A stretch of DNA of 64,000 nt, from the NCBI GenBank assembly GCA_029266945.1, contig JARIED010000023.1, forward strand, positions 34,491-98,490. The letters run 5' to 3'. A model generated the notes under the pieces. That model was given only the letters and a program-made list of their open reading frames with translations. It searched no databases and was not told the origin of the DNA. Shown here in pieces: positions 42,340 to 63,279 of this stretch; position 1 is the first letter of the stretch, and the number at the start of each line of letters is the position of its first letter. The DNA comes from Slackia sp. GTDB taxonomy: Bacteria; Actinomycetota; Coriobacteriia; Coriobacteriales; Eggerthellaceae. The translations under genes were made by a program, and so were the position numbers.

Positions 42340-43632
42340 TTATTTCTTGAACCTGATCGAGAAGTTCACCGGCAGCAGATATTCGCCGTCGCTTTTCTCG
42401 ATAAGGCTCCAGCCATACTTCTTGGCGCTGACGTATTCGAACACCGTATTGCGGAACAGGTATTCCCTGAATTCCTCACGGTCGTTGGCGTGATAGCACA
42501 GCACGTCGCCATCGGGCTTCACCACGATATAGCCGCCATTGACTTGCTCGATGCCGTCCCACGGCTTGGTCGCCGACATGCCCGAGAACGCGGCGTACAG
42601 AAAATCCTTCATGGCTTTCTCATACACAGCCGCGGCGACGGCGGGCGGATAGCGCATCGGATTCTGCTCGGCAACCGATGCCGTGATAGCCGCCACGTCG
42701 GACGTCGTCGCGCCGCCGATGAAGCGCTCGCGCACGCACGCCGCGACGATTTCCAGCATGCCTTCGCGGATGAACAGCAGATTGCGCTCGAACGATCCCG
42801 CATTGCGGGCACGGGCGAAACTGACGCGCAGCCCGTGCTCGTCGAAAAACGGCTGGCAGCAGGCAAACCATCCCCTGTTGCCGCGAGCGTCATGCAACGC
42901 GTTGAATTCCTTCATCAAAGCGTCGTCGCAATGCGCGACCCAGTACAGAAGCGGCGCGGAAGGGCTTGCGTTGAACAGCGTCGCAGGGCTGCCGAACTGC
43001 GATTTGACCGAGAATCCCATCCTGTTGACCAGGGCATTGCGGCCGTCGCGCGTCTCGATGACGATATCGGCCTTGCCGCCGAACGCCTTATCGTGCCCCT
43101 GAACTCCAGGCGCCTTGGGATTACGCACGCCGATCGAATCGACGAAATCGCACACCTCGACGGGAGCATGCATGGTTTTCGCGCCGGTCGACGACGATGT
43201 CAGGCGATCGAACAAGATTCGAGCCGCCCGTTCGCAATCGGCCATAGAGACCGTCTGCACGGAGCCGCTCGGCCCCGCCGCATCATCGGCGTCGAACTCG
43301 CCTGCGGAATCTCCTTCGCAGGAAAAAAGCGACGTTTGATGCGCTGCGTCGGCAGAAACGTCTCGATGTTTCGTTGCAGGAACGGCCGCAGCGCTCGGTG
43401 CGTCGCCCCGACGCACCGCGACCGTTTCCGTTGCGGAGTCCACTTCGTAAACGGTAGGCTCGCCCGCCGCCTCGCACCGCAAAATCTTCGAAACTTCGAG
43501 AAGCGAGTCCGTCTTGCAGTTCAGGTCGCTATCGGCAGCGTGAAGCCTCCCTGTGCCGAGCAGGCGCAGAAACACGTAAAGCTCGGCCCATTCCCCCCTG
43601 TTGTATTCCTGGTCGTGAATGCGCTTGTCCAT
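42340..43632 (-). CDS. Type II restriction endonuclease, HpaII-like (tentative family)
   Basis: 430 aa. The N-terminal NRGEWAELYVFLRLLGTG resembles the HpaII-family N-terminus as I recall it. It lies immediately downstream of a C5-MTase gene (29-nt gap). GGGAAGGAA SD upstream. Confidence 0.68.
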   Translation of the reverse strand: MDKRIHDQEYNRGEWAELYVFLRLLGTGRLHAADSDLNCKTDSLLEVSKILRCEAAGEPTVYEVDSATETVAVRRGDAPSAAAVPATKHRDVSADAAHQTSLFSCEGDSAGEFDADDAAGPSGSVQTVSMADCERAARILFDRLTSSSTGAKTMHAPVEVCDFVDSIGVRNPKAPGVQGHDKAFGGKADIVIETRDGRNALVNRMGFSVKSQFGSPATLFNASPSAPLLYWVAHCDDALMKEFNALHDARGNRGWFACCQPFFDEHGLRVSFARARNAGSFERNLLFIREGMLEIVAACVRERFIGGATTSDVAAITASVAEQNPMRYPPAVAAAVYEKAMKDFLYAAFSGMSATKPWDGIEQVNGGYIVVKPDGDVLCYHANDREEFREYLFRNTVFEYVSAKKYGWSLIEKSDGEYLLPVNFSIRFKK

Positions 43633-43661
43633 GCGCGGATTCCTTCCCTGCGCGGCAGATG

Positions 43662-44714
43662 CTAGTCCCGCGCCTCGAGTACCGCGCGGACTTCGCGCGC
43701 GATGGCCTCGATCACAGGCACGGTGACGCTGTTGCCGAGCTGCTTGTACAGATGCGTATCGGACAACGGCAGCTTATACGAATCGGGAAAACCCTGCAGG
43801 CGCGCCCATTCGCGCGGTGTGAGCTTGCGAATGTCGGCATCGTTGATCTTGCCCTTGATCGCCGTGGTGGGCACCATGCTGTGCTCGCGATGGTCGGCGA
43901 TCAGGTTGCGCTCGCGACCCATGCCGCCGCACACGATGGCGCCCGATTTGCCATCGAGGGGACGCACCATGTAGCCGAATCCGTTGCCGCGCGAGCGATG
44001 GCGCTGCTTATGACGTTCGAGCGTCGCGAGATACGTATCCGACAGGTAGTAGCGCGACGGGATGGGCGCGTCTTCCAGAATGTCGGCCAACACGACGCCT
44101 GCATCGGTAGGTTCGGGGAAGCGAAACGCGCTCGAGTCCACGTCGTTGCGAAACGCCACGATGTAAATGCGTTCGCGATTCTGCGCCACACCGTAATCCT
44201 TGCTGTTCAGCACGGCGTCGTACACGGTATAGCCGATCTGTTCGAGCGCGCCCCTGATCACCTTCAACGTGCGGCCTTTGTCATGCATGACCAGGCCTTT
44301 CACGTTTTCGCAGAAAATGACGCTCGGCTTATGATACTCGCAGATGCGCAACACGTCGAAGAACAACGTGCCGCGGCTGCGGCCTTTGAAGTTGTCGTCG
44401 AAGCCCATCTTCGAACCCGCGATCGAAAACGCCTGGCACGGAAAACCCGCCAGGCAGATATCGAACGGCGGAATATCGTCGGCCGAAATCTGCGTGATGT
44501 CGCCGTACACGTACGGCTCGGAGCACATAGGCTCCTTCGACGAGCACGGCGCCGAGGGCGTATCGAAATTGGCCGCATAGGTCTTCACCGCGTGCTCGTC
44601 GAACTCGCTCGCGAACACCGTTTCCACGCCGTCGCCGAACGCTGCCTCGAAGCCCATGCGAATACCGCCGATGCCGGCGAAAAGATCGATCGTTTTCAAG
44701 GCCTTAGAACTCAA
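43662..44714 (-). CDS. DNA (cytosine-5)-methyltransferase
   Basis: Motifs I (DLFAGIGG), IV (GFPCQAFS), VI (ENVKGL), VIII (QNRERIY) and X (GNSVTVPV). A TTG start is proposed 4 nt after GGAAGGAG. The track ORF extends upstream to 44984 with an Arg-rich extension. Confidence 0.9.
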   Translation of the reverse strand: MSSKALKTIDLFAGIGGIRMGFEAAFGDGVETVFASEFDEHAVKTYAANFDTPSAPCSSKEPMCSEPYVYGDITQISADDIPPFDICLAGFPCQAFSIAGSKMGFDDNFKGRSRGTLFFDVLRICEYHKPSVIFCENVKGLVMHDKGRTLKVIRGALEQIGYTVYDAVLNSKDYGVAQNRERIYIVAFRNDVDSSAFRFPEPTDAGVVLADILEDAPIPSRYYLSDTYLATLERHKQRHRSRGNGFGYMVRPLDGKSGAIVCGGMGRERNLIADHREHSMVPTTAIKGKINDADIRKLTPREWARLQGFPDSYKLPLSDTHLYKQLGNSVTVPVIEAIAREVRAVLEARD

Positions 44715-45012
44715 AGCGCTCCTTCCGATGGGCGGTCGGCATGATGGAAAACGCCGACGCGACAGGCCGGCGAGAAGACACGAACTATGTATTGTAGTGC
44801 GTCGCGGCGCACGATGAAACAAGAAGCGGGCCGCTCCGAAAAACAACCCGATCCGCAGCATGACGCGCCATCGATGCGCCAGGATCGTGCTTCCGATTAG
44901 CTGTCCACATCGGAAGCACGTCTCCGACGGCATGCGCGGGCAGATGCGCGGCCGCAACCGCGAACCTGGAAGGCACGTCCGCATCGTACGAACACGCCCT
45001 GCGCGGCGCGAT

Positions 45013-46295: not shown

Positions 46296-47180
46296 CTACA
46301 TCACGAAGGTCAGCGGCACGGCGGCCATCACCACCAAGTAGCGCAGCATAAAGCCGCCGACCAGAACGCCCGCATCGGACGCGAAGCCGATCCAATGCGC
46401 CTTGCGGCTTTCCTCGAATTCCTTCGACGTGAAGAACAGCAGCCACGTCTCGAGCACCGTGGGAAGAACCAGCCCGACGAACACCAGGCCGACCCAGAAC
46501 CACACGGCCCATTCGCCCGATACCAAGCTCACGACGGACTCGAAACCGGCGGTCGAATCGAATGCGGTGATGAAGCACAGCGAAGCGACCAGCAGCATCT
46601 CGATGATCGGCAAGCAGAAGTGGAATTTCTTCAGCACGCCCGCTTTGTCGAACTCGTCGGCATGGCGCACCACGGCCGCCAGCAAAACCGATGCCGCGCC
46701 CGCGGAAAGGGCCGACACCGTGAACAGCACGGGTAGAAGCGCATTATTCCACAGGGGGTAAGTGCTGCACACGCCAAGCAGCGCGCCGGTATAGCCCGCC
46801 ACGCACAGCGCCGCCACGGCGCCCGCCACCTCAAGCCAACCCGGCACCTTCTTCTTCATGAAGTCGAACACCGCGGTGACCAGGGCCGCCGCCATGAAAA
46901 CGCTCAAGAAGACCACGCCCCACGTCATGACCGAGCCGAAGTTGCTCAGCAATAGCGCGAAACGCAGGGGATTATGCAAGCAGGCCTCGGCGTCCACCAT
47001 CAAAAGCACCAATCCGATCGCCACCGCGATAGGCGCGATGACGTGGCCGGCGCGGCGCATGCCGCGAGCCTCGGGGTGGCGCCAACGCAAAAACGCCAAC
47101 GTGATACAGGCGCCTGCACCCAGGCCCGCAAGGAATAGACACCACGCGATCGGCGCGCCCCATACAGGTTCGATAGACAT
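46296..47180 (-). CDS. DmsC/NrfD-like membrane anchor subunit
   Basis: 294 aa with about 8 TM segments. The N-terminus WGAPIAWCLFLAGLGAG is typical of DmsC/NrfD anchors. It is last in the dmsABC-like string. Confidence 0.8.
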   Translation of the reverse strand: MSIEPVWGAPIAWCLFLAGLGAGACITLAFLRWRHPEARGMRRAGHVIAPIAVAIGLVLLMVDAEACLHNPLRFALLLSNFGSVMTWGVVFLSVFMAAALVTAVFDFMKKKVPGWLEVAGAVAALCVAGYTGALLGVCSTYPLWNNALLPVLFTVSALSAGAASVLLAAVVRHADEFDKAGVLKKFHFCLPIIEMLLVASLCFITAFDSTAGFESVVSLVSGEWAVWFWVGLVFVGLVLPTVLETWLLFFTSKEFEESRKAHWIGFASDAGVLVGGFMLRYLVVMAAVPLTFVM

Positions 47181-47186
47181 CCTTCA

Positions 47187-47495
47187 TCACCTCACGTAGT
47201 AGACCTTGGACTTGGTCGGATCGCCCACGATGGACCGAGCATTCGTCTCGACGATGCGCTTGGAGATATCGGACTCGGGGTCGTCCAGGTCGCCGAACAT
47301 GCGCACGCCCGCGGGACAGGCCGTCAAGCACGTGGACATGCCCTCTTCGAGCGGCGCATACAGCGTGCAGAAACGATACTTGTCCACCACGCCCGTGCGA
47401 TGGTCCACAACACGCGCCTGATACAGGCAGGCGGCCATGCGATATTTGCAGCCGATGCACCTCGTAGTGTCGATAAGCATTCCGTAACGAGCCAT
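47187..47495 (-). CDS. Degenerate, internally shortened DmsB-like ferredoxin subunit (probably non-functional)
   Basis: Only 102 aa, against about 200 for DmsB-type subunits. The N-terminal GMLIDTTRCIGC and C-terminal CLTACPAGVRMFGDLDDP...VYYV ends are retained, but only 6 Cys remain instead of 16. The ATG overlaps the dmsA stop (TAATG). Confidence 0.6.
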   Translation of the reverse strand: MARYGMLIDTTRCIGCKYRMAACLYQARVVDHRTGVVDKYRFCTLYAPLEEGMSTCLTACPAGVRMFGDLDDPESDISKRIVETNARSIVGDPTKSKVYYVR

Positions 47496-49673
47496 TAGGC
47501 ACCCACCTTCTTCACGTTCACGAAAACTTCCTGCAGCATGCCGGAACCAGATTCGGGCTCAGCCTGGCGCGTGACGAGCGCCTTATGCAACGCGCCGAAC
47601 CCGAATGCCGTGCGAATCTCTTCCGATTCGCAGCCATAATGCGGCGGCAGATACACGGCGTCGGGACGAATGCGGCCGGTCACGCGAACCTTCACCTGCA
47701 CCGATCCGCTATCGTTCGAAAGCTCCACCACGTCGCCGTCCTCGATGCCGAGCTCTGCGGCGCGCGACGTCACCATCCAAACGTGGTCGGCTTCGAAATC
47801 CTTCGCGAGCTGCGCCAGCTTATCGCTCGCCATGGTGTAGGTCTTGCTCTGGAATACCTGGTCGCCCGTGATCAGACGCAACGATTCGCCGGAGGCGGAC
47901 ACGGCCAGCTCGATCCATGCGGGAACGGCAGACATGCCGCCCGCCGCGTAGGCCTCGCACGCGAACTCGATTTTGCCCGACTTCGTAGCGAACGCCGGAA
48001 CGTTGCCGAATTCGAGCTCGCAACCAGGGATAGGGGCCAAGCCATCGGATTTCAGCGCATCGTAGGAAACGCCGTAAGCCGCGCAGTACGTCTCGTTGAG
48101 CTGGTCGAGCGTGAAAGAGAAGTATTCGCCCAAACCGCATGCCTCGGCCAGGTCGACGATGATTCGATACGTCGGCTTGGTCTCGGGATGCACCTGGTCG
48201 ATCACGGGATTGCGCAGCGTGGCCACGGTCGCAGGAGCGGTAGCGGTGCCCACGATGCCGCGACGCTCGAGATAGGTCGTCTCGGGCAGCACATAGTCGG
48301 CCGTTTTGGCGGTTTCAGTCATGAAGCTGTCGACGACCACCTTGAAGTCGTTTTTTCCCACATCCTGCGCAGTCATCGCGGCCTGAGGATAGTCGACAAG
48401 AGGATTGCTGCCGAAGAACAACGCCACGTCGAGCGCGCCCTCGGCGGGCGCGGCCATGACGGCCTGGCAATCGTTTGCATACATATAAGCAAGAGGATGC
48501 ACGCCCGCGCCGATTGCATAGCTTTGCGGATAGCCGACGGGCTTGAACACCGTCGGATCGAACGCGCTGTCGTCGACCCACGGGCCCAGCGGGAACACCC
48601 AGCCGCCCTTCTGGTTGAAGCTGCCCAGCATCGCATTAAGCAAAATGATGCCACGCACGGTTTCGGCACTGTTGCGGTAGCCGCTTCCTACGGCGCCGGC
48701 CCACTGCATGTCCACATAGCAATGCGGCGCGGCGGCGGCCAAGCCTTCGGCGATCTCGGCGATTTTGGCCTCAGGAATGCCGGTCCTCCCGCTCGCCCAG
48801 GCGGCATCATAGGAGCGCACGCTTTCGGCGAAAGCCTCGAATCCCGATCCGTTGGCCTCGACGAACGCCTTATCGTAGAAATCGTTGTTCAACAAGTGCC
48901 CCATCACGCCCAGGAGGAACGCAAGCTCGAAGCCGGGGCGGACGCACACCCATTCATCGGCCAATGTGCCGATGCTCGGCAAACGAGGGTCTACGACGAC
49001 CACTTTACCGCCGTTTTCGCGAACGCGGATCACTTCCTCGGTCTCCGCAGGGCGCACGCCCTCGTAGTAGTTCTTGTCCAGAAGGACGATATATTTCGAT
49101 CCCTCGGCATGCGGCGCGGGGAACACGCCCAAGGTATTCGTTATGCCGGTAAGGATGTCCATGTCGGTCAGCACGGTATCGGTGTAGTAGTTCGCCGACC
49201 CCAGCGCGTTCATGAAGCGCTGGGCGTAATACTGGTCGGTCGCTCGAGAATCCTGGAACAACGCCACGCGGACGGTTCGGCCTCATTGATACGGACCGCG
49301 ATATCGACGATCGCCTCGTCCCACGATACGGCGGAGAAATTGCCCTGGCCGTCGTTTTTCAGCGGCGTGGTCAAGCGGTCTTCGGAATAGGCGACCGCCG
49401 TGTACCTCAAGCCGCGCACGCACAGATACCCATGCGCGAACGGATGGTCCTCGAGTCCCATGAAGCACCACAGGGCGCCGTCCCGCGTCCAAGCCCCATG
49501 CCGCATTTGTTGCCGCAACCATCGCACGTCGTCGCCGCGTATCCCACGACGAGGTCTTCGCCCCAAGCGAAAGCCTCGGGGCGTCTGCCGCCCACGCCGC
49601 CGAACGCGACCGCCGCGCCGGCTGCAGCGCCTGCAGCGAGAAACGAACGTCTCGCAAGAGCACTACTCGGCAT
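47495..49673 (-). pseudogene. Molybdopterin (bis-MGD) oxidoreductase catalytic subunit, DmsA family, disrupted by two -1 nt frameshifts
   Basis: Three frames join into one protein: a TAT signal and FeS motif (RRSFLAAG..., TTCDGCGNKCGMG), then AWTRDG...HPFAHGYLCVRG...DRLTTPL...SWDEA, then AVALFQDS... through to the end. The breaks are at the C4 run 49494-49497 and near 49267. AAGGGGGA SD upstream. Confidence 0.8.
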
Positions 49674-49946
49674 AAATCGATCCCCCTTGCGTTGTCGGTT
49701 GATTGGTTCGCGCTGCGTCGACGGACAAGGCCATGGTCCCCGCCGATGCGGCGCAAACGCATTATCACCGGTCGAAAACCGTCTTCGCATGCCCCATTTG
49801 AGGGAAAATAGCGACTCTACCCCCTTAGTGAGTATGCATTTGTACTGGGGTTTTAAGAAAATAGCACCTCGCAGCCGCAATAAAATGCAGTCGGAATCGC
49901 CCTTGATATACTTAACCGCCGACACGACCGTCGAAAGGAAATATCC

Positions 49947-51187
49947 GTGCATTCGCCTCTTCCGAAGCTTCGTTCGCTCACGGCCTACGCCGCGCCTATC
50001 CCGATCATCGCAGGCCCGGCCCTTTCCCATATCGCAATAATCATGTCGGGGCTCGGCGGACTCGCGAGCGGATTCGAGGTGCTGAGCAGCTGACTCGGAA
50101 CGGGCATCGCCTCCGTGCCGATATTCATCGCCACGCTCGCGCTCTACAAGGCGCACAACCCCTCTTTTTTTCGAAAAGGTCCATCGATGCCGCATTCTTC
50201 ATATCGATCGCCGTACAGTGCGCATCCATCGCGGCGCTCGGCCTCCTTGCGGCGAAAGCGCCTTCCGCATCCATCGGGCTTCCCGCGATAACGTCGCTTT
50301 CCAGCTGGATATCGATTCTCTCATGGCTGCGCCGCATGCAAGCGGTATCGTCGATCGCCGCCGTCTCCACTACGCTCAGCGCGGTCATGACGGGCTTGGT
50401 CTGGTATTTGATCATGGCGTTTTCCCATTATGGAACCAAGGACCCCTTCTTCTACGGGCTGGCTGGATAGCTCGCCTATCTCCTCCCGCGCGCGCTTGTG
50501 CAAATCGTCGTCGGACACACCCCCGGCCCGTTCCTCAGCGACCCCGCTCTTTTGGCCGCGCTATCGGGAGCCATGATTTTGGCATCGATGCAATTCGTCT
50601 TCGTCAGACTGCTGAAGACCGCACACAGCGACACCGACGCGGCTCAAGAGAGCACACAACGCCTCGAAGAGCTGCTCGGCCTGAAGGGCGCGCAAATGAG
50701 CGGTGCCTCCATGCGTAAAGAGCTGATTTTGCACGATGCGGAAAAGCCGCAAAAGGAATTCGGACTGTCCGACCGCGAGGCGGAGGTGATCGGCTTGTAT
50801 GCCCTCGGCAAGACGCAGCAAGCGATTGCCGAAGACCTCTGCATCACCCCCGCCACGGTACGCGTGCATATCAAGCATGTTTACGCGAAGACCGACCTGC
50901 ATTCTCACCAGGAAACCATCGATCGAATGAACAGCTTTCGACGGCGGCGGCTCGATGCGACGCGCATGCCAAGACGCGCACGCCCGCCCCCTTTCAGCCC
51001 CTCAACGCAAAGCAGCCCCGTTCCGGTCGAAACCGGAACGGGGGCCGATGCAGTTACGCATGACAAAAGGAGGGGAACGGCGTCCCAAACGACGCCGAGT
51101 CGGGCGGGCGGCGAGCCTCAGGCTTGGGGAGGGATCGACGGCCCGCCGCCGCATGCCCCGCTTCGGAAGGATAGCCGGAAAGGCTAG
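49947..51187 (+). pseudogene. Membrane-associated LuxR-family regulator, disrupted (in-frame TGA, frameshift in a T7 run, in-frame TAG)
   Basis: GTG at 49947 behind GAAAGGAAA. Hydrophobic segments continue across the TGA at 50091-50093. The frame shifts at the T-run 50165-50171. A TAG at 50468-50470 is in frame with the C-terminal HTH (LSDREAEVIGLYALGKTQQAIAEDLCITPATVRVHIKHVY). Confidence 0.65.
51015..51044. terminator. Strong hairpin in the convergent region (LuxR pseudogene / SUOX-like operon)
   Basis: 13-bp stem GCCCCGTTCCGGT-cgaa-ACCGGAACGGGGC. There is only a weak T-tract (CTGCTTTGCGTT) on the minus strand. Confidence 0.45.
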
Positions 51188-52263
51188 ATCACTTCGAACG
51201 TCAGGCTAGCCTCGAGAGGCGATACCATGCCGTCGGCCGTGCGGGCACGGACGGTGAGCTGGTACTCGCCGGCCTCCTCGAAGGAGGTCTCGAACTGCCA
51301 GTTGACCCACTTGTCGGCGGTAGCGCCTTCGGTCAGGCACTCGGTCCAGGTCTCGCCACCGTCGAAGGAAAACTCGATGGCTTCGATGGCGCTGCCCAGG
51401 TCGTCGGCCACACCCTCGAAGGTGATCGCGTCGCCAGCGAAGAACACGCAGCCGTCGGCGCTGTTCATGATCTCGATCTTGTTGCGGTACGCCGGATCGA
51501 CGGACTGAACGTCAGGAACCTGCTCCTCGGCGGTCAGCTTGATGTCGATGACGTTGCGCGTGAAGTAACGGGCGACGGTCTCGGGCATCCACAGCTGGGC
51601 GGAAGGACCGGCTTCGCTCTTGAGCTTCTCGCCGTTGACCTCATAAACCAGCAGCGCATCGCGGTCGAGGCAGTACTGCAGCGGCAGGGCCTGGCCGAAG
51701 CCGTCGGCTCCGTAAGCCGTCACGGTGTTCACGCCGTCCTCGAGGTCGGCCATGTCCACCACGGCCGCCAAAGGCACGCCCACGACGGCGGCCTGGCCGA
51801 ACGGAGCGCCGGTCGCACAAGAGCACACCATGGTCTGCTCCTCGGACTGCTCTTCCATGTCCTCGAGGTTCACGGAGAAGCTCTCCTTGATGTTGCCGCC
51901 CACGTTGATGTAGTAGTTCGCAACGCCCTCGGCAGGCTCGCCCACCACAAGCTCGTTGGCAGGTTTGGAGCACATCGAGGTAATCGTCGTGCCGAACACG
52001 TTGAACAGATCGTCGTTGGGGGTCACGCCGTCCTGGTTGAAGAAGAACGTGCCCTCTTTGTCGGCGACCTTGACATAGTCGCTCTCTTCGAGCTGCAGCG
52101 TGTGCGAGTCGATGGTGTAGCCGTTGTTCTCGTGCGTAGCGCCCTCGGGTGCATCCTGGCCGCCCAGGATCGTCGGGCCGCCCGCGGCGACGGCAACGCC
52201 GGTCATTCCCAGCAGAAGGGCGCCACCAGCCGCTCCTGCAGCCATTGCTTTCTTCTTATTCAT
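51184..52263 (-). CDS. Secreted sulfite-oxidase-fold (Moco-type) oxidoreductase paralogue, no haem motifs
   Basis: N-terminal signal MNKKKAMAAGAAGGALLLGMTGVAVAAGG. The core TMVCSC...VVGVPLAAVVDMADL...YGADGF...LLVYEVNGEKL resembles Oxidored_molyb. The C-terminal IEFSFDGGETWTEC...YQLTVRARTADG resembles the Mo-co dimerisation Ig-like domain. Confidence 0.78.
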   Translation of the reverse strand: MNKKKAMAAGAAGGALLLGMTGVAVAAGGPTILGGQDAPEGATHENNGYTIDSHTLQLEESDYVKVADKEGTFFFNQDGVTPNDDLFNVFGTTITSMCSKPANELVVGEPAEGVANYYINVGGNIKESFSVNLEDMEEQSEEQTMVCSCATGAPFGQAAVVGVPLAAVVDMADLEDGVNTVTAYGADGFGQALPLQYCLDRDALLVYEVNGEKLKSEAGPSAQLWMPETVARYFTRNVIDIKLTAEEQVPDVQSVDPAYRNKIEIMNSADGCVFFAGDAITFEGVADDLGSAIEAIEFSFDGGETWTECLTEGATADKWVNWQFETSFEEAGEYQLTVRARTADGMVSPLEASLTFEVI

Positions 52264-52286
52264 AAGAAAACGCTCCTTCGTGTTGA

Positions 52287-53972
52287 CTATTCGTTCTCAA
52301 GACCGGTCGAGAACATCAGAGGCAGGTCGGAATCGGGACCGCCGGCCTTGATGACCTTGTCCTCGGCGGGCAGCTGGTCCATAGCGTTGACCATGACCTC
52401 ATGCTCGCGGAAGCTCACTTCGCCCTGCTCGGTGGTTGCGCGAACGCTCAGGCAGTAGGCGCCGTGCTCAGGCGGGGTCCACTCGAAGGTCCACCAGATC
52501 CAGCGCTTGGTGTCGGTGTCGCCCAGATCGTAAGAGGTCCAGGTCTCGCCATGGTCCATAGAGAACTCGAGCGTCTTGACCTTGTGGTCGAAAGCGTCGA
52601 CGTAACCCTGGAAGGTGTAGGGCTTGCCGGTCTCGATGATCACGCCTTCAGGCGTGCCGCAGATCGTGGCGTTCGGACGGTTGACCAGCATTTCCTCCTG
52701 GTTCACCTGGCCGCAGACGCGCTCCTTCATCTCGTCGGAAGAAACGATGTAGCCGGAGGGCTGCTTGGAGAAGACCTGAGCGTCATAGCTTTCGACCCAG
52801 TTGATGCAGGGGAAGCCGCGACGTGCGTCGAGGTACTCGCCGCCCATCTTGTAGACCAGGTACTCGTTCTCGAGCATGGAGACGTCGATGCCGTTCTTGG
52901 AAGAACCGTCGGCGCGGACGCAGCGGATGGAGTTGGTGCCCTCGGTCATGCCGCCGGCACGCTCGATCAGCCAGCTCACGGGGATACCCGTGATCTCGGT
53001 CTGGCCGATGCCGCCGCCGCCGGTCGGGTTGAGGTCGCAGACCATCTTGGAAGCCTTGGTCACGACAGCGCCTTCGGCCTCGGCCTCGGCGATCAGGTCG
53101 ACCAGCTTAGCAGTGTAGGGGTTGGGCACGTTGCCCTCGATGGTGATTTCCCACTCGTCCATCATGCTCTGGGGCAGATCGAGGTCGAGAGCGGCATCGG
53201 AGCATGCATAGCGCATGTGGTCGTAATAGCCGTGAACGAAGTCGTAGCTGTACAGCTCGTCCATAGTCTGGACCTTGTCCTGCGTGAAGTCGAAGTTGCC
53301 CTCGACGTTCTCGACCGTGGTGATGCTGTCCTTCAGAGCGTCGTACTTCACGTTCTCCCACAGCTGCAGACCGTTGCCGTCGCCCGTGGCGGTGTGGCAG
53401 GACTCGCACGTGCCGTCGAAGCCATCTTTGAACTTCTCGGAGTTACGGCTGTTGAAGTGGATGCCGTGCATCAGTCGGCCGAACTCGTCGCCGTTGTCAC
53501 GATGGCAGGTGATGCACTGCTCGACGTCGCTGTAGGTCTCAAGGTCTTTGTTGGGAAGCACGGCGTGGCGGTATTCCATGTTCATGACGGTCTCATTGAG
53601 GTCGGCATGGCAGGAGTTGCAGCCCTTCTTGTCGGCATCCAGATAGTAGGTGTTGTACGAAATGGTCCAGCTTTGCTGCATCCAGTGCGGGCACTCGTAC
53701 TCGGAAGGAGTGCGCTGAACCAGCTTGCCGTTGGGAAGCTGACGGACCTCGGGAGCATACTCCTCGGCGATCCGGTCCCACTTCTCGTAGTTCTCGATGA
53801 TGTACTCCTTGCCAGGATACTGCACATCGCCGTCGGGCTCGCCGCCGCGCACGATCTCTGCCGCGGTGGAAGCCGAATCGACTGCGAAGGCAGGCACCAT
53901 GAGAGCCGACGCCGCAAGCACGGTTGCTATGCCTGTTACCATGGCAGCGCGCTTCGTCACCTTCTTCATCAT
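52287..53972 (-). CDS. Tri-haem c-type cytochrome fused to a sulfite-oxidase-fold (Moco-type) domain
   Basis: Signal or anchor MMKKVTKRAAMVTGIATVLAASALMVPAFA. Three CxxCH motifs (CNSCH, CITCH, CESCH) lie at nt 53394-53621. Next comes KMVCD...ITGIPVSWLIERAG...ADG...LVYKMGGEYL...GFPCI. The last part is LEFSMDHGETWTSYDL...WIWWTFEWTP...LSVRATTEQGEV. Confidence 0.8.
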   Translation of the reverse strand: MMKKVTKRAAMVTGIATVLAASALMVPAFAVDSASTAAEIVRGGEPDGDVQYPGKEYIIENYEKWDRIAEEYAPEVRQLPNGKLVQRTPSEYECPHWMQQSWTISYNTYYLDADKKGCNSCHADLNETVMNMEYRHAVLPNKDLETYSDVEQCITCHRDNGDEFGRLMHGIHFNSRNSEKFKDGFDGTCESCHTATGDGNGLQLWENVKYDALKDSITTVENVEGNFDFTQDKVQTMDELYSYDFVHGYYDHMRYACSDAALDLDLPQSMMDEWEITIEGNVPNPYTAKLVDLIAEAEAEGAVVTKASKMVCDLNPTGGGGIGQTEITGIPVSWLIERAGGMTEGTNSIRCVRADGSSKNGIDVSMLENEYLVYKMGGEYLDARRGFPCINWVESYDAQVFSKQPSGYIVSSDEMKERVCGQVNQEEMLVNRPNATICGTPEGVIIETGKPYTFQGYVDAFDHKVKTLEFSMDHGETWTSYDLGDTDTKRWIWWTFEWTPPEHGAYCLSVRATTEQGEVSFREHEVMVNAMDQLPAEDKVIKAGGPDSDLPLMFSTGLENE

Positions 53973-54306
53973 TCCCCCTTCTTCATTGCGACGGTCGCCG
54001 TTTCCTACCCGAAAACGATCGCCGCCGCCCCCTATCGGACCCCTCGGGTCCATCTGACAGACTCGAGATTAGCCCTCCGCAAGGCGGGCGCGCATCAACA
54101 CATCCGCGCTAAATGCCTGATAAATGGCATAGACCCTTTTGGTTGATGGGTGAAATGACCAGCACTAAACCAATAGTGAGGCTTTCTCCATAGACAGACG
54201 GAGCCTTTTCACGGACAATGAAGGAACAGGTGATAAGACGTCCGCTCCCCGCGGTCGGAGAAAGCCGTACGACCGCAAAAACATGCAATATACCGAAGGA
54301 GAGGGA

Positions 54307-55803
54307 ATGCTCGCATCCTTTAAAGATGCCGGCCTTTGTGCGCTATTCGCCGCCATCGGCCTCACCGTCAACCTAACCTGGTGCACGCTCGCAGGGCACA
54401 CGCCAGGGTTCACCGATGCCCTGTCAGGGTTCGGCGTGCCCGTCAACCCGCGCGCGTTCTTCCTCATGGGCATCCTTGCCATGAGCGTCGTATTCGCCGC
54501 GTTGCCGCGCAAAATGAGGGAAATGGAATCATCTCTGTGGCCCGTGGTCACCCTTCTCGCATCGGTCGGAACGGCATGCTTCGCCATCGCGTCGACCCAA
54601 AGCACCTTCCCTCCTGTCGCGCTTGCCATCGGAGGCCTGCTGCTTTTCGGCGTCGGCTATTTCTGGCTTACGGCACGATTCGTATTGCTTCTCGCGCGCA
54701 CACAAACCTTCATGCCCACCATGGCGTGCCTTGCCATATCGCTGATCGCCGAGCCGGCGCTTGTCTCGCTCGCCGAACGGCTCCTCAGCACCGATGCACA
54801 GGTATCCCTCGTCGTGCTGATGCCCATTCTTTCCACCGTGTTCTTCCAGTGCGCCCGCAGCGCCGCGCTCAAGCAGCGCAGCAGCGAAAAGACCGGCCGC
54901 ACGGTGTTCGGCGTTCCTTCGCGTCCGCGCGGCGAGCAGAAAAAAGGCATGCGAGACGACATTCGCGACGCGATCATCCTTATCGCCGCCGCATCGCTTC
55001 TTCTGGCCACCGTGCGCAGCCTGAGCTTCGTCGGCCTGTGGGGCGAAGGCCACATCGACGAGTTCGACCACCCGTCCATGACGTCGAGTCCGCTGCTTTT
55101 CCTGGCCTACTGCCTCGGCCTGGCGGCGTTTTCCTATCTCGCCCTCGGACGCACCGAGAACTGGCCGCTACGCCTGCGTTTCCAGCCGTCGTTCATCACG
55201 ATTATCATCACGCTGTCCGTGTCCATGATCCTCGCCGGCGACCAGAACGCCAACCCCGCCGTGCTCGACACGCTCATGAGGCTCAACGACTCGTTCTCGC
55301 ACCTGATGTTCTGGGCGGTGGTGGCCATCCTGCTCGACCTGTCCACCATCCCCTCGTATCGCGTCATCGGCACGGCCACGGCGCTTTACGCTGCAGGATC
55401 GATCGTCTGGGTTCTCTTCCTGGGCAAAGCCGACGCGGTCGAAAACCTCATCGTGATCGCGGCGATCTACGTGCTCTCCATCGCCTCAATGTATTACAGC
55501 TGGAACAAGCGCGAATCCGCGCCGAGCGATGCCGCCGCCGTGGTGACCGACGCCCTGGAGCGCCGCTGCGCCGAGGTTTCCGAGAAGTACAAGCTTTCGC
55601 CGCGCGAGAGCGAAATCTTGGTCCTACTCGCCCAGGGCCGCACCCGAACCTACATCCAGGAAGAATTGGTGCTGGCCGAAAACACCGTGAAGTCGCACGT
55701 CGCGCATATTTACACGAAGCTCGGCATCCGCGACCGCCAGGACATGATCGATATCGTGCTCGACATCGCCGACACGAAAAACGACAGGCACGCGAAAGAC
55801 TAG
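54307..55803 (+). CDS. Multi-TM LuxR-family transcriptional regulator (membrane sensor with C-terminal HTH)
   Basis: About 10 hydrophobic segments are followed by LSPRESEILVLLAQGRTRTYIQEELVLAENTVKSHVAHIYTKLGI. ATG behind AAGGAG. It is divergent from the cytochrome/SUOX-like operon. Confidence 0.86.
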   Translation: MLASFKDAGLCALFAAIGLTVNLTWCTLAGHTPGFTDALSGFGVPVNPRAFFLMGILAMSVVFAALPRKMREMESSLWPVVTLLASVGTACFAIASTQSTFPPVALAIGGLLLFGVGYFWLTARFVLLLARTQTFMPTMACLAISLIAEPALVSLAERLLSTDAQVSLVVLMPILSTVFFQCARSAALKQRSSEKTGRTVFGVPSRPRGEQKKGMRDDIRDAIILIAAASLLLATVRSLSFVGLWGEGHIDEFDHPSMTSSPLLFLAYCLGLAAFSYLALGRTENWPLRLRFQPSFITIIITLSVSMILAGDQNANPAVLDTLMRLNDSFSHLMFWAVVAILLDLSTIPSYRVIGTATALYAAGSIVWVLFLGKADAVENLIVIAAIYVLSIASMYYSWNKRESAPSDAAAVVTDALERRCAEVSEKYKLSPRESEILVLLAQGRTRTYIQEELVLAENTVKSHVAHIYTKLGIRDRQDMIDIVLDIADTKNDRHAKD

Positions 55804-55882: not shown

Positions 55883-56200
55883 CTACTTCGCAGCGGCAAG
55901 CATCTCTTCGATGCGGGAACGCGGCACATAGCCCGTCACCGCATCGACCCGCCTTCCACCCGAAAACAGAAGCGTCGTCGGCGCGGCGGCCACATCGAAG
56001 GCCCACGCCACGTCGGGAAATCGCACGGTATCCATGGCCGCGAAACGCATATGCGGGTAGGCGTCGGCCATCTGCTCGAGCAGCGCGCCGAGCGCATGGC
56101 ACGGCCCGCATCCAGGGCTGAAGAATTCGACCAGCACCGGACACGTCGCATCGGTCACCAGTTCGTCGAAGTTGTCTTTATCGAGTTCGATCAAGCGCAT
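55883..56200 (-). CDS. trxA: Thioredoxin
   Basis: 105 aa after trimming to MRLIELDKDNF, with the CGPC active site (FFSPGCGPCHAL). GGAGGTG SD upstream. Confidence 0.88.
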   Translation of the reverse strand: MRLIELDKDNFDELVTDATCPVLVEFFSPGCGPCHALGALLEQMADAYPHMRFAAMDTVRFPDVAWAFDVAAAPTTLLFSGGRRVDAVTGYVPRSRIEEMLAAAK

Positions 56201-56383
56201 CGCACACCTCCGCATCCGCGGCGCGTGCGCCGCAAGAAATCGTTTTCCTGCATTGTCGGAAGACGGCGACGAGCGTCAAGCAAGACCGAGCGCCCCTTCG
56301 GCGGCCGGAGGGGCGGAAGCGACAAGCCACACGTGGAATCGAACAACCGAAAACCCCGCCCCCCTGTCCAAGAGTGCAAAAAG

Positions 56384-59523: not shown

Positions 59524-59622
59524 GCGATGCGCCGCCGCACGCGACGCATCGCTTCCAAACCGGCCGGCGCTGCCGCGCCGCACCTACGCCCGCGCATGCG
59601 GGCCCGAAAGAAAGGACCGGCC

Positions 59623-60888
59623 ATGTCGGATACCCCCTCCATGATTTCGCTCGAAGAGGCCCGCGCGCTCGTGGTCTCGCACGTGAGCGTCCTGCCCGCC
59701 GAAACCGTGCCGCTGCTCGATGCGATCGGACGCGTCGCGGCCGCCGATGTGAAAAGCGACATGGACGTGAGCCCCTTCGCCCACGCCGCCATGGACGGCT
59801 TCGCCGTGCATGCGAGCGACCTGGCCGAAGCGTCGGAAAACACGCCCGTCGAGCTCGATGTCATCGCCGACGTCCCCGCAGGCAGCACCTACGAAGGAGC
59901 AATCGAATCCGGCCGTTGCGTGCGCATCATGACGGGCGCCGCCCTTCCCGCCGACGTCGATTCGGTCGTGAAATACGAAATCGTCGAAACCGTCTCGGGC
60001 GACGGAAAAGCGGGCAGCTGCGTCCGCTTCAGCGAGCCCTGCAAGCCCGGCAGCAACGTGCGCGAAGCGGGCGAAGAGGCGCGCGAAGGCGAAACGGTCA
60101 TGCATGAAGGCGAAGTCATCCACCCCGCGGGCATCGGCTTTCTCGCCGGGTGCGGGGCGCTCGAGGTGGCCGTGCGCCGCCGTCCGCGCGTGGCGGTCAT
60201 CCCCATCGGCAGCGAGCTGGTCGAACCGCCCGCAAAGCCCGGTCCCGGCCACATCCGCAATTCCAACGGCTACGCCATGGCGGCCTGCGCGCGCGATGCC
60301 GGCGCGCTCTGCGACATCCTTCCCATCGTGGTCGACGACGAGGACCTGCTGGCCCAGGCCGTCGAGCGCGCGGCGGCCGAATACGACTTCGTCGTGACCA
60401 CCGGCGGCGCCTCCAACGGCGATTTCGACTTCATCAAGCCCGTCGTCGAGCGCCTCGGCACGCTGTATATGACCACCGTGAACATGCGCCCCGGCAAAGC
60501 CCAGACGTTCGGCCTGGTGAACGGCACGCCGGTGTTCGGCCTGCCTGGCAATCCGGCGGCCGCCTACATGGGCTTCTCGCTGATCATCCGCCCGGCGCTG
60601 CGCGCCATGCAGGGCTATACGGCCCTCGAGCACCCGTGCGTCAAAGCGCGCATTACCTCGTCGAAGAAAAAGAAGGACCCGCGCCGCATCTTCTCGCGCG
60701 CCACGATCGCGCGCGGCGCCGACGGCGTGCTCGAAGTGACCCCCGCCAAAAACCAGAGCTCCGGCCTGTTCGGCGTCATCCAGAAAAGCAACTGCGTCGC
60801 CATCATGCCCGAAGGCCTCGACCCCGTGCGCGAGGGCGACATGGTAGAGTGCATTCTGCTCGATGCGCCCGAGGACATCGTCCTGTAA
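59623..60888 (+). CDS. moeA: Molybdopterin molybdenumtransferase
   Basis: MoeA pattern: SPFAHAAMDGFAV, RIMTGAALP, IRNSNGYA, TTGGASNGDFDF, PGNPAAA. The start was trimmed to MSDTPSM. Confidence 0.92.
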   Translation: MSDTPSMISLEEARALVVSHVSVLPAETVPLLDAIGRVAAADVKSDMDVSPFAHAAMDGFAVHASDLAEASENTPVELDVIADVPAGSTYEGAIESGRCVRIMTGAALPADVDSVVKYEIVETVSGDGKAGSCVRFSEPCKPGSNVREAGEEAREGETVMHEGEVIHPAGIGFLAGCGALEVAVRRRPRVAVIPIGSELVEPPAKPGPGHIRNSNGYAMAACARDAGALCDILPIVVDDEDLLAQAVERAAAEYDFVVTTGGASNGDFDFIKPVVERLGTLYMTTVNMRPGKAQTFGLVNGTPVFGLPGNPAAAYMGFSLIIRPALRAMQGYTALEHPCVKARITSSKKKKDPRRIFSRATIARGADGVLEVTPAKNQSSGLFGVIQKSNCVAIMPEGLDPVREGDMVECILLDAPEDIVL

Positions 60889-60946
60889 CGCGCTCGATCC
60901 CGTCCTGACGGACGGATGCGGGAAGAAATCACGGAAAGAGGAATCC

Positions 60947-61441
60947 ATGACTGAAGAATATCGGGAGCCCTGTCCCACCTTCGCCATCATCACCTGCTCC
61001 GACACGCGCACGCTCGAAACCGACTCCGCGGGCGCGGCGCTCGAGGCGCTCATCGCCGAACGCGGCTGGACCTGCCTCGATCGCGTCGTGGTGGAAGACG
61101 ATCGCCCCTTCATTTCGGGCGCCCTGCTCCACGCGATTCAAGACCTCGAAGCCGACTTCGTGCTGACCTGCGGCGGCAGCGGCCTTTCCCCGCGTGACGT
61201 GACCCCCGAGGCCACGCGCGACGTGTGCACGCGCGACGTCCCCGGCATCGCCGAGGCCATGCGCGCCCACAGCATGCGCATCACGCCCCGCGCCATGCTG
61301 TCTCGCGCCGTATGCATGCAGCGCGATAACAGCATCGTCATCAACCTGCCTGGCAGCGAGAAGGCGGCCCGTGAAAACTGGGAGGGAATCGTCGACGTGC
61401 TGCCGCACGCCGCCCTCATGATGCAGGGTGCAGGCCACTAA
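60947..61441 (+). CDS. MogA/MoaB-family molybdenum cofactor biosynthesis protein
   Basis: FAIITCSDTR, LTCGGSGLSPRDVTPEAT, LSR, LPGSEKAA. The start was trimmed to MTEEYRE behind GAAAGAGGAA. Confidence 0.88.
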   Translation: MTEEYREPCPTFAIITCSDTRTLETDSAGAALEALIAERGWTCLDRVVVEDDRPFISGALLHAIQDLEADFVLTCGGSGLSPRDVTPEATRDVCTRDVPGIAEAMRAHSMRITPRAMLSRAVCMQRDNSIVINLPGSEKAARENWEGIVDVLPHAALMMQGAGH

Positions 61442-61609: not shown

Positions 61610-62119
61610 CTATTCGCACCCCTGCGAACGCTCCCACAGACCCGTCTTGCCGCCGTCTTTCTTAAGGAGTCTCACGTCCATGATTTCCATGCCGCGATCG
61701 ACCGCCTTGCACATGTCGTAAACGGTCAGGCATGCAACGCTCGCAGCCGTGAGCGCTTCCATCTCGATGCCGGTCTTGCCGGTAACGCCGCACGTCGTGG
61801 TGATATGGATGCCCACCAGGCCGTCGGCTCGCTCGCCCTCGCGCACCGGGTCGCACGACACCTTCGCCTTCGTGATGTTGAGCGGATGGCACATGGGAAT
61901 AAGCTCGCTGGTCTTTTTCGCCGCCATCACGCCCGCCACGCGCGCGCAGGCGAGCACATCGCCTTTCGCGGCCGTGCCCGACGTGATCAGCGCGAGGGTC
62001 TCGGGCTTCATCGCAATGAAGCCTTCCGCCACGGCAACGCGCTCGGTGTCGGCCTTCTGCGACACGTCCACCATGCGCACGTCGCCCTGTTCGTCGATAT
62101 GGGTCAACGTCTCGGTCAT
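61610..62119 (-). CDS. moaC: Cyclic pyranopterin monophosphate synthase
   Basis: LTHIDEQGDVRMVDVS.K..T.R.A, IPMCHPL, MEALTA.SVA.LT.YDM.K. Confidence 0.93.
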   Translation of the reverse strand: MTETLTHIDEQGDVRMVDVSQKADTERVAVAEGFIAMKPETLALITSGTAAKGDVLACARVAGVMAAKKTSELIPMCHPLNITKAKVSCDPVREGERADGLVGIHITTTCGVTGKTGIEMEALTAASVACLTVYDMCKAVDRGMEIMDVRLLKKDGGKTGLWERSQGCE

Positions 62120-62128
62120 TGTTCTCTC

Positions 62129-63133
62129 CTATCCGCCGATCTGGCTCATGCCGCGTCGGGTTCCCACCTTATCGTGATGCTCGTCGGGCTTGGCACCCAG
62201 GGCTTCGTACAAAACGGCGCGCACCGCGTCGTCGGATTCACCCGAGCGAAGCGCCGCCCGCACGTCGAATTCCTCGTCGGAGAACAGACAGGGCCTGATC
62301 TTGCCGTCGGCCGTCAAGCGCAGCCTGTTGCATTCGCTGCAGAAGTGGCGCGAAAGCGGCGAGATGAACCCCACCGTTCCCTGCGCGTTCTCGAACTCGA
62401 AATAGCGCGCAGGACCCCAGCCCGAAGGCGTACGCTTCGAAGCAGGACGCAGGCGTCCGAGCCCCGCGGCTTCGGCCCGCTCGTCGATCATCGCGCGCAG
62501 CTCGTCGCTCGGGATGACGTCTTCTTTGCCCCATCCGCACCCGCACGACCCGGCGCTTGCGCCCACCGGCATGTACTCGATGAAGCGCACATGCAACGGC
62601 CGGTCGATCGACATGCGCGCGAACGACAAGACGTCCTGGTTCAGCGAACGCACGACCACGGCGTTCAGCTTCACGGGCGAAAAGCCCGCCTCAAGCGCCG
62701 CGTCGATGCCCGCCATGGCATCCTCGAACGAGCCGCAGCGCGTGATGGCGCGATACTGCTCGGGATCGAGCGTGTCGAGCGAGATGTTCACACGCGAAAG
62801 GCCCGCTTCCGACAGCTCGTCGGCCATGCGCGGCAGCAGGATGCCGTTCGTCGTCAACGCGACGCTTTCGATACCCGAGATGCTCTTCAGCGCACGCACC
62901 AAACCCGTCACGCCGCGGCGTACGAGCGGCTCGCCGCCCGTCAACCTGACACGCGTGATACCCATGTCCGCCGCGATCCGCACCAGGCGCTCGATTTCCT
63001 CGAGCGTCAGGATGTCGTCGTGCGAAAGCGCGTGGACCCCCTCTTCGGGCATGCAGTAAATGCAGCGGAGATTGCACCGGTCCGTCAAAGAGATGCGCAG
63101 ATAATCTATCGTGCGCCCGTGAGAATCCTTCAT
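62129..63133 (-). CDS. moaA: GTP 3',8-cyclase (radical SAM)
   Basis: RISLTDRCNLRCIYCMP (CxxxCxxC), a GGEPL motif and a C-terminal Cys cluster (FCSECNRLRLTADG). The start was trimmed to MKDSHGR behind AAAGGGGAGGGG. Confidence 0.93.
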   Translation of the reverse strand: MKDSHGRTIDYLRISLTDRCNLRCIYCMPEEGVHALSHDDILTLEEIERLVRIAADMGITRVRLTGGEPLVRRGVTGLVRALKSISGIESVALTTNGILLPRMADELSEAGLSRVNISLDTLDPEQYRAITRCGSFEDAMAGIDAALEAGFSPVKLNAVVVRSLNQDVLSFARMSIDRPLHVRFIEYMPVGASAGSCGCGWGKEDVIPSDELRAMIDERAEAAGLGRLRPASKRTPSGWGPARYFEFENAQGTVGFISPLSRHFCSECNRLRLTADGKIRPCLFSDEEFDVRAALRSGESDDAVRAVLYEALGAKPDEHHDKVGTRRGMSQIGG

Positions 63134-63279
63134 GGAGGCCCCTCCCCTTTTTATACTCATACGCGAATAGTATAAAGCATGCAGAAAGCCCTGAACGAAA
63201 AACGGCACTCGCGCGGCCCCATATACGACAGGCGCCCGACCGAAGCCGGGAGCCTGTCGCCATAGCATCTTGCTTTTCG

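Follow-up and report, generated by a model that had tools for sequence, protein, structure and literature searches.

A triheme cytochrome c fused to a sulfite-oxidase-fold domain, and its haem-less partner, in Slackia and other anaerobic bacteria

Enzymes with the sulfite oxidase (SUOX) fold are known as sulfite oxidases and dehydrogenases, plant nitrate reductase and MsrP. A locus in Slackia sp. raises the question of what such a domain does when it is joined to a multihaem cytochrome c, and of how a protein that places c-type haems and a domain of the molybdenum cofactor (Moco) type behind a general secretory (Sec) or lipoprotein signal is assembled. We analysed a 64,000-nucleotide stretch of this genome (the window; GenBank assembly GCA_029266945.1, contig JARIED010000023.1, positions 34,491 to 98,490), in which gene A encodes a triheme cytochrome c fused to a SUOX domain, gene B encodes a haem-less paralogue and a third, divergent gene encodes a LuxR-type membrane regulator. 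The reading that we favour, with a probability of about one in two, is that A and B make up a heterodimeric SUOX-fold oxidoreductase, extracytoplasmic and induced by its substrate, which works in the reductive direction and is predicted to be of the MsrP/nitrate reductase mechanistic type.

Domain architecture of proteins A and B

Gene A (52287-53972, minus strand) encodes a 561-residue precursor in which a signal peptide is followed by a triheme cytochrome c domain, then by a SUOX Moco-type domain and finally by an Ig-like dimerisation domain. The product of gene B (51184-52263, minus strand) has 359 residues and comprises a SUOX domain and an Ig-like domain behind a Gly/Ala-rich signal peptide, and the regulator gene lies at 54283-55803 on the plus strand. 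All three open reading frames had been called in an earlier reading of the letters alone (the original prediction) and are present at the positions given there. The frame of gene A is open to 54053; its start was set at 53972 because a Shine-Dalgarno-like AAGGGGGA stands directly before the ATGATG at this position. The closest relative of the locus was found in Slackia faecicanis DSM 17537 (locus L001, NZ_QICB01000002.1), whose protein A is 97.5-98% identical.

A word-index search detected 120 relatives of A, all of which carry solely the database name 'molybdopterin-dependent oxidoreductase', in Eggerthella, Raoultibacter, Gordonibacter, Paraeggerthella, Slackia, Lachnospiraceae, Christensenellales and other Clostridia. 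A profile search, which covered 1.84 billion cluster representatives exhaustively, gave 293 matches to the A family at E ≤ 1e-30, representing at least about 100 clusters at 50% identity; its 150 best matches were examined, and 147 of the proteins were newly returned.

The triheme region of A (53328-53873, minus strand) matched PF22113 (MtrC/MtrF II/IV) at 32.1 bits, above the gathering threshold of 30, and contains the motifs CNSCH (residues 118-122; 53607-53621), CITCH (residues 153-157; 53502-53516) and CESCH (residues 189-193; 53394-53408), all on the minus strand. These three CxxCH motifs, already pointed out in the original prediction, are a family-wide feature: they occur at conserved spacing in all full-length members among the 120 word-index homologues, and exactly three were present in 119 of 147 representatives of 50%-identity clusters, far beyond chance. 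In a 50-sequence family alignment, H136, H169 and H172 were invariant alongside them and are likely the distal ligands of three bis-His haems, whose occupancy is predicted. A word-index search with the haem domain only, made for other fusion partners, returned 47 candidates, mostly fragments. A 520-residue metagenomic protein (P0107) combines the triheme module with domains of the dimethyl sulfoxide (DMSO) reductase family (PF00384, PF01568); either the haem module is truly fused to a second class of molybdoenzyme in this protein, or the gene call is mis-joined.

The next domain of A (52737-53315, minus strand) had been read as SUOX-like, and several independent comparisons agree. It matched PF00174 (Oxidored_molyb) at 35.6 bits (gathering threshold 24), and the A family profile aligned with SorA over residues 68-351, dimerisation domain included, at E 1.2e-22. 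An AlphaFold2 model of A (predicted local distance difference test, pLDDT, 84; predicted template modelling score, pTM, 0.83) retrieved SorA as the best Foldseek match (E 2.9e-20), followed by SorT, SoxC, chicken and plant sulfite oxidase and nitrate reductase, and these alignments spanned 313-403 columns; the match to YedY had an E-value of 4e-9. The Ig-like domain (52368-52676, minus strand) aligns to SorA 266-351, and the Foldseek matches extend through the dimerisation domain. The proposal that this domain is of the Mo-co dimerisation type is thus borne out by the SorA alignment and by structure, whereas the Pfam model Mo-co_dimer matched only below threshold (E 0.0067 in A and 0.046 in B). 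Protein A therefore carries the full SUOX fold, with both the Moco-type and the Ig-like dimerisation domain.

Protein B had been described as a paralogue that adjoins A and lacks haem motifs. BLASTP aligned A 182-520 with B 36-348 (E 9e-28, 26% identity), and this alignment makes B a paralogue of A's C-terminal two-thirds. Its SUOX domain (51520-52071, minus strand) matched PF00174 at 56.8 bits (gathering threshold 24), its Ig-like domain (51187-51480, minus strand) matched the bacterial Ig domain Big_7 at 28.9 bits, and the B profile matched SorA at E 3.5e-13. The AlphaFold2 model of B (pLDDT 63) was too poor for use.

A candidate molybdenum ligand had also been proposed for both proteins, in the sequences KMVCD and MVCSC, and three independent comparisons (SorA, Thermus sulfite oxidase and MsrP) align it with the known ligand. 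In A, this residue is C312 within KMVCD (53034-53048, minus strand), the sole invariant non-haem Cys in the 50-sequence alignment. The A family profile sets it on C104 of SorA, which is the Mo ligand, and hhalign on the Cys of 'MRCVEAW' in Escherichia coli MsrP. In B, the CSC of the MVCSCA motif (C147-S148-C149; 51814-51831, minus strand) was aligned with the Mo-ligand motif 'LQCSGNGR' of Thermus sulfite oxidase and with the MsrP Cys; the hhalign probability against MsrP was 80% for A and 12% for B. On these alignments, C312 of A and C147 of B occupy the Mo-ligand position of SorA, Thermus sulfite oxidase and E. coli MsrP. The metal-binding Cys of the CSC motif in B is ambiguous, as C149-A-T-G also resembles C-A-G-N, which makes C149 an alternative candidate. 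C98, C147 and C149 are invariant in B homologues from Coriobacteriia to Clostridia, and S148 is either Ser or Thr.

Pairing, duplication and regulation of the A-B operon

The stop codon of gene A is separated from gene B by 23 nt, and GAAGGAG lies 9 nt ahead of the B ATG; with this gap and this motif, A and B are assigned to one operon. A B-type gene directly followed A at every locus that could be read through, i.e., about 25 loci in Coriobacteriia and six in Clostridia or unassigned metagenomes. Organisms with the pair include Slackia, Raoultibacter, Gordonibacter, Adlercreutzia, Eggerthella sinensis, uncultured Coriobacteriales and Clostridia. The regulator gene is divergent from gene A, with a spacer of 310 nt; upstream of A, all Coriobacteriia loci of sufficient length have such a divergent LuxR gene, among them paralogous copies with 38-44% identity.

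The LuxR protein has a C-terminal GerE helix-turn-helix domain (PF00196, residues 438-491, E 5.6e-14), and a hydropathy scan placed about 11-12 hydrophobic segments in the stretch from residue 9 to residue 408. It is intact, divergent and multi-transmembrane, as had been stated, and its number of segments is slightly above the ten that had been ascribed to it. Alignment of seven orthologous intergenic regions from Slackia and Coriobacteriales loci showed a near-invariant block of 57 nt (54091-54147, minus strand) between variable flanks. The block has the form CATCAAC...ATGCC-N8-GGCAT...GTTGATG and includes the palindrome ATGCC-N8-GGCAT; on this conservation, it is a candidate operator/promoter of the A-B operon and a candidate operator for the LuxR protein. 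Consensus scans for promoters and terminators near the A-B operon gave background level only.

S. faecicanis contains three LuxR-A-B triads. The paralogous copies are 52% and 48% identical in A, 67% and 45% in B and 38-44% in LuxR, and from this congruent divergence of all three proteins the triad is judged to have been duplicated as a whole unit. The presence of three copies, each with a diverged sensor of its own, suggests that they serve different small-molecule substrates. In the third copy (A3-B3; locus L024, NZ_QICB01000004.1, 12449-16653), the A-B genes are followed by a Fer4_11 gene for an NrfC/DmsB-like protein with four [4Fe-4S] clusters, which bears a TRRAML signal of the twin-arginine translocation (Tat) type, and by an NrfD-family gene. 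A module made up of a Tat-exported FeS protein, an NrfD-like quinol oxidase and a periplasmic cytochrome c has been described (PMC10924467). The A3-B3 operon, with its FeS and NrfD genes, is a complete quinol-to-cytochrome module, and the copy in the window is without these genes. Their presence in the paralogous operon lends support to the earlier suggestion that quinol or haem electrons are wired to a SUOX-type site.

Some clostridial members of the A family have an additional N-terminal FMN_bind domain. Regulators vary among the clostridial pairs (MerR, MarR or none), and a conserved third gene, such as a cofactor exporter or chaperone, was not found near these pairs, as the neighbours differ from locus to locus.

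On a Clostridia contig (L029, 7130-15868), an FMN_bind-triheme-SUOX variant and its B adjoin ResB and CcsA, which function in cytochrome c maturation; a DUF4213/DUF364 'heavy-metal chelation' gene adjoins them as well, and FdhD-NarQ and YdhW_C genes are located about 1.6-2.9 kb upstream. A metagenome contig with 66% G+C (L036, 3-7717) carries two divergent A-B pairs, in which B is without the Ig-like domain, is 272-276 residues long and has CSCAGNP or CSCQGNP in place of the motif described above. One of the two A proteins on this contig (P0309) has a Tat-like SRRRFIK signal. The neighbours of the pairs on L036 include a rhodanese gene, a gene for an isochorismatase with a Tat signal and an FMN_bind/FAD_binding_2 reductase gene.

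Proposed function and alternative explanations

According to the reading that we favour, the reaction would be removal of an oxygen atom from an S-oxide, an N-oxide or a similar oxo substrate. The multi-transmembrane LuxR protein would sense the substrate and activate the A-B operon at the conserved intergenic block. A and B, both of which have export signals, would be exported, and ResB/CcsA would attach three c-haems to the CxxCH motifs of A outside the cell. The two proteins may then pair through their Ig-like domains in the manner of sulfite oxidase subunits, as their strict adjacency and their paralogy suggest. Electrons from menaquinol would pass through a membrane quinol dehydrogenase, for which the NrfD and Tat-exported FeS proteins of the paralogous operon are the candidate module, and by way of an FeS protein, a cytochrome or another carrier to the three bis-His haems. 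These in turn would deliver them to a Mo-pterin centre, with the invariant Cys of A, of B or of both as its ligand. The hosts are strictly anaerobic, and their arsenals of reductases are large (10.1101/2022.12.26.521950). We propose the reductive direction because of these anaerobic, reductase-rich hosts, the FMN_bind fusions and the flavin-reductase neighbours on the metagenome contig L036.

Several observations weigh against this reading. The direction of electron flow is deduced from physiology only, and the window contains neither a quinol dehydrogenase nor a second cytochrome; in a check for a quinol-oxidising cytochrome of the NapC/NrfH type, none of its other open reading frames had more than one CxxCH. 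The residues expected to hold the pterin phosphate are in part replaced. In chicken sulfite oxidase, H283, R288 and K301 bind the phosphate of molybdopterin (PMC5856855). The equivalent of K301 is retained, as K403 in A and as the invariant R236 in B, whereas at the position of R288, the Arg of the 'GxPxR' motif that SorA, Thermus sulfite oxidase and MsrP possess, A has I390 and B an invariant Q223.

The export signals are a further difficulty. Moco is normally inserted in the cytoplasm, and exported Moco enzymes then need the Tat pathway; haem c is attached to an unfolded, Sec-exported protein. A strict Tat motif was present in none of 110 A-family and none of 110 B-family members. A lipobox was found in 67 of the 110 A-family members. 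The signal of A in the window (MMKKVTKRAAMVTGIATVLAASALMVPAFA; 53883-53972, minus strand) ends in a signal-peptidase-I type site (AFA/V) and has KR, not RR; its TKRAAMV resembles a KR-type Tat motif and an orthologue (P0004) has TRRAATV, and this basic pair is not conserved. Among 105 full-length representatives, only P0309 has a Tat-like signal. The B signal is Gly/Ala-rich with Lys residues, and some Clostridia have a lipobox there. DmsA-like and NrfC-like proteins of the same genomes have classic RR signals, unlike A and B. By their sequences, A and B have Sec or lipoprotein signals and not Tat signals. With such signals and a replaced phosphate Arg, the presence of Moco in A and B is presumed from sequence, and its loading would need an unusual route. 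A Moco riboswitch, finally, was found neither in the window nor in eight related loci.

One way to reconcile these facts is that the SUOX domains are genuine Mo-pterin enzymes which are exported unfolded by Sec, often as lipoproteins, and receive their pyranopterin cofactor outside the cytoplasm. We regard this as a speculative proposal with rather poor odds. If it were true, it would mean a Tat-independent, extracytoplasmic maturation of molybdoenzymes in anaerobic Gram-positive bacteria, parallel to c-haem attachment and to flavinylation by ApbE, and the SUOX-fold reductases at the cell surface of gut bacteria would be a large class that has gone unrecognised; loading of the cofactor outside the cytoplasm would be a categorically new kind of biogenesis.

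The same facts could be explained if the SUOX-fold domains hold no Moco at all, and instead bind another ligand or cofactor (either another metal on the conserved Cys residues or, as PruR does, a free pterin) or use Cys catalysis, with the haems in some other redox or sensing role. The Sec or lipoprotein signals across the family, the lost Moco-phosphate Arg of both proteins and the missing riboswitch would all fit, as would the presence in B of three invariant Cys residues rather than one, and there is a precedent in PruR, which has a SUOX fold, is exported by Sec and binds pterins other than Moco (PMC11194511). However, PruR-type proteins have Trp in place of the Cys and a truncated hairpin, whereas here the Cys at the Mo-ligand position is invariant in both families. 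The phosphate-binding Lys/Arg is also kept, at least one member (P0309) has the Tat-like signal, and genes for Moco biosynthesis or of the FdhD type occur nearby, the latter on the Clostridia contig L029. In the window, the biosynthesis cluster lies 4-11 kb from A-B and consists of moeA (59527-60888), a MoCF_biosynth gene of the mogA/moaB type (60863-61441), moaC (61610-62119) and moaA (62129-63268). On balance, we consider a Moco-less function unlikely.

Residues of the substrate site bear on the remaining explanations. R55 and H57 of SorA ('FFVRYH') correspond to FNVFG in B and to an unrelated ELYSYDFVHG in A, so that the residues of the sulfite site are without conservation; A and B likewise show no conservation at the positions of Y236 of SorA and of the Cys-loop Arg. 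The FNVFG of B resembles the FYEFG of MsrP, and the Cys loop is short, as in MsrP. The NCBIfam equivalog models for SorA, SorT and SoxC scored 27-69 bits against cut-offs of 420-600. We rejected an identity as sulfite dehydrogenase, as SorA R55, H57 and Y236 are absent and the equivalog scores are an order of magnitude under the cut-offs; judged by these residues and scores, the substrate of A and B is not sulfite.

The likeness to MsrP invites the suggestion that A and B repair methionine sulfoxide in cell-surface proteins and have no respiratory role. MsrP is treated as the sole sulfoxide reductase with a SUOX fold (PMC7759655), its short Cys loop and FYEFG motif have the counterparts just described, and some clostridial pairs lie near a gene for a hybrid-cluster protein and next to a regulator of the MerR or MarR type, a context of the stress type. 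However, the occurrence of three copies in a single genome, with a dedicated and diverged membrane sensor for each (38-44% identity), is a better fit to different small molecules, and both A and B have the dimerisation domain that MsrP is without. Foldseek also placed the model of A much closer to the SorA class (3e-20) than to YedY (4e-9), and no MsrQ-type Pfam match occurred among the neighbouring genes examined, the rest of the window not having been scanned for MsrQ. A repair function of this kind is improbable.

A dehydrogenase of the SorAB/SoxCD type is likewise improbable. In such an enzyme, sulfite or some other reduced compound would be oxidised outside the cell, and its electrons would travel from Mo through the haems to an acceptor or the quinone pool. 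The nearest relatives in sequence and fold are indeed the sulfite dehydrogenases SorA, SorT and SoxC, and a rhodanese gene adjoins the pair on contig L036, but the SorA residues and the equivalog scores described above do not agree with it, the hosts are strict anaerobes with no obvious high-potential acceptor, and the FMN_bind fusions and reductase-type neighbours suggest that electrons flow from the inside to the outside.

Comparison with known systems and neighbouring genes

The best match to A and B in both sequence and fold is provided by SorAB of Starkeya novella (PDB 2BLF) and by SorT/SorU. SorAB has in common with them the SUOX Moco and Ig-like dimerisation domains, the aligned Mo-ligand Cys and a c-haem relay beside the Mo domain outside the cytoplasm. 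However, its haem resides in a separate mono-haem subunit whereas A has an N-terminal triheme fusion, SorA has the R55, H57, Y236 and phosphate-binding Arg that are absent in A and B, and the partner of A is a second SUOX-fold protein. SorA is exported by Tat. SoxCD (PDB 2XTS; Foldseek E 3.5e-17) likewise joins a catalytic subunit of the SUOX type to a partner that is a c-type cytochrome; it differs in that SoxD is a separate di-haem subunit and the complex has an oxidative role in the Sox pathway, and NCBIfam SoxC scores were 27-52 bits, where the cut-off is 420.

MsrPQ (YedYZ) of E. coli is, as proposed for A and B, a cell-envelope SUOX-fold reductase supplied with electrons from the quinone pool, and shares the short Cys loop and an 'F-x-x-F-G' motif with B. 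In contrast to A and B, MsrP has a Tat signal (KRRQVLK) and no dimerisation domain, and its electron donor is the haem-b/FMN (flavin mononucleotide) membrane protein MsrQ rather than a fused haem c. PruR resembles A and B as a Sec-exported protein with a SUOX-like fold that can be loaded with excreted pterin after export, but it is a small single domain with Trp for the Mo-ligand Cys, a truncated hairpin, no redox partner and a signalling role (PMC11194511). NrfABCD and other modules with Tat-exported FeS and NrfD-like proteins (PMC10924467) correspond to the A3-B3 operon of Slackia, in which an NrfD-family protein and a Tat-type 4x[4Fe-4S] protein accompany an exported multihaem acceptor; the difference is that the terminal catalyst here would be a SUOX-fold domain and not a catalytic haem, and that the window copy is without NrfCD genes.

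A Moco domain and a triheme cytochrome c also occur in one polypeptide in the nicotinate dehydrogenase NicAB of Pseudomonas putida. Unlike A, NicAB is a member of the xanthine oxidase family with the molybdopterin cytosine dinucleotide (MCD) cofactor, has the cytochrome domain at the C-terminus and is an aerobic dehydrogenase. The LuxR-linked inducible reductase loci of Eggerthellaceae share with the present locus a divergent multi-transmembrane LuxR gene beside an exported reductase and the occurrence of many paralogues per genome. The enzymes of the Cgr and catechol dehydroxylase loci are flavoproteins or DMSO-reductase-family enzymes with the bis-MGD cofactor (MGD, molybdopterin guanine dinucleotide) and Tat signals, and are not SUOX-fold proteins.

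The original prediction had known of no characterised N-terminal fusion of a multihaem cytochrome c to a SUOX domain. Full-text literature searches retrieved no description of the triheme-SUOX architecture, the reviews consulted name no c-haem-fused SUOX enzyme, and the database names are generic. The architecture that appears unreported combines an N-terminal triheme cytochrome c (sometimes preceded by FMN_bind) fused to SUOX, an obligate haem-less SUOX partner and, in the one genome studied in depth, several copies each with its own sensor. The reductase arsenals of Eggerthellaceae and gut Clostridia shape the chemistry of drugs, diet and host metabolites, and surveys of these arsenals have counted flavin and DMSO-reductase-type enzymes and not the triheme-SUOX family.

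Three further features of the window are described here. Beside the triheme-SUOX triad, which is intact, is a DMSO-reductase-type operon with its own divergent LuxR gene (46296-51187), which encodes DmsA-like (with an ARRSFLAAG Tat signal), DmsB-like and NrfD/DmsC-like proteins and is decayed in comparison with S. faecicanis DSM 17537. The LuxR gene has lost about 486 bp internally, dmsB is short of about 218 bp at its 5' end, and dmsA has indels; the intact frames of 494, 749, 179 and 294 residues in L001 are represented in the window by a 229-residue LuxR remnant, a split DmsA and a 102-residue DmsB. A small thioredoxin gene of the cytoplasmic type (CGPC; 55883-56215) is located between the LuxR gene and argS and is syntenic in most Slackia loci; its CGPCH fits CxxCH by coincidence only. 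Genes for an HpaII-type restriction endonuclease and a C5 cytosine DNA methylase (42340-44984) coincide with the lowest G+C content of the window (0.57-0.60 compared with about 0.61-0.68), and this restriction-modification system was probably acquired.

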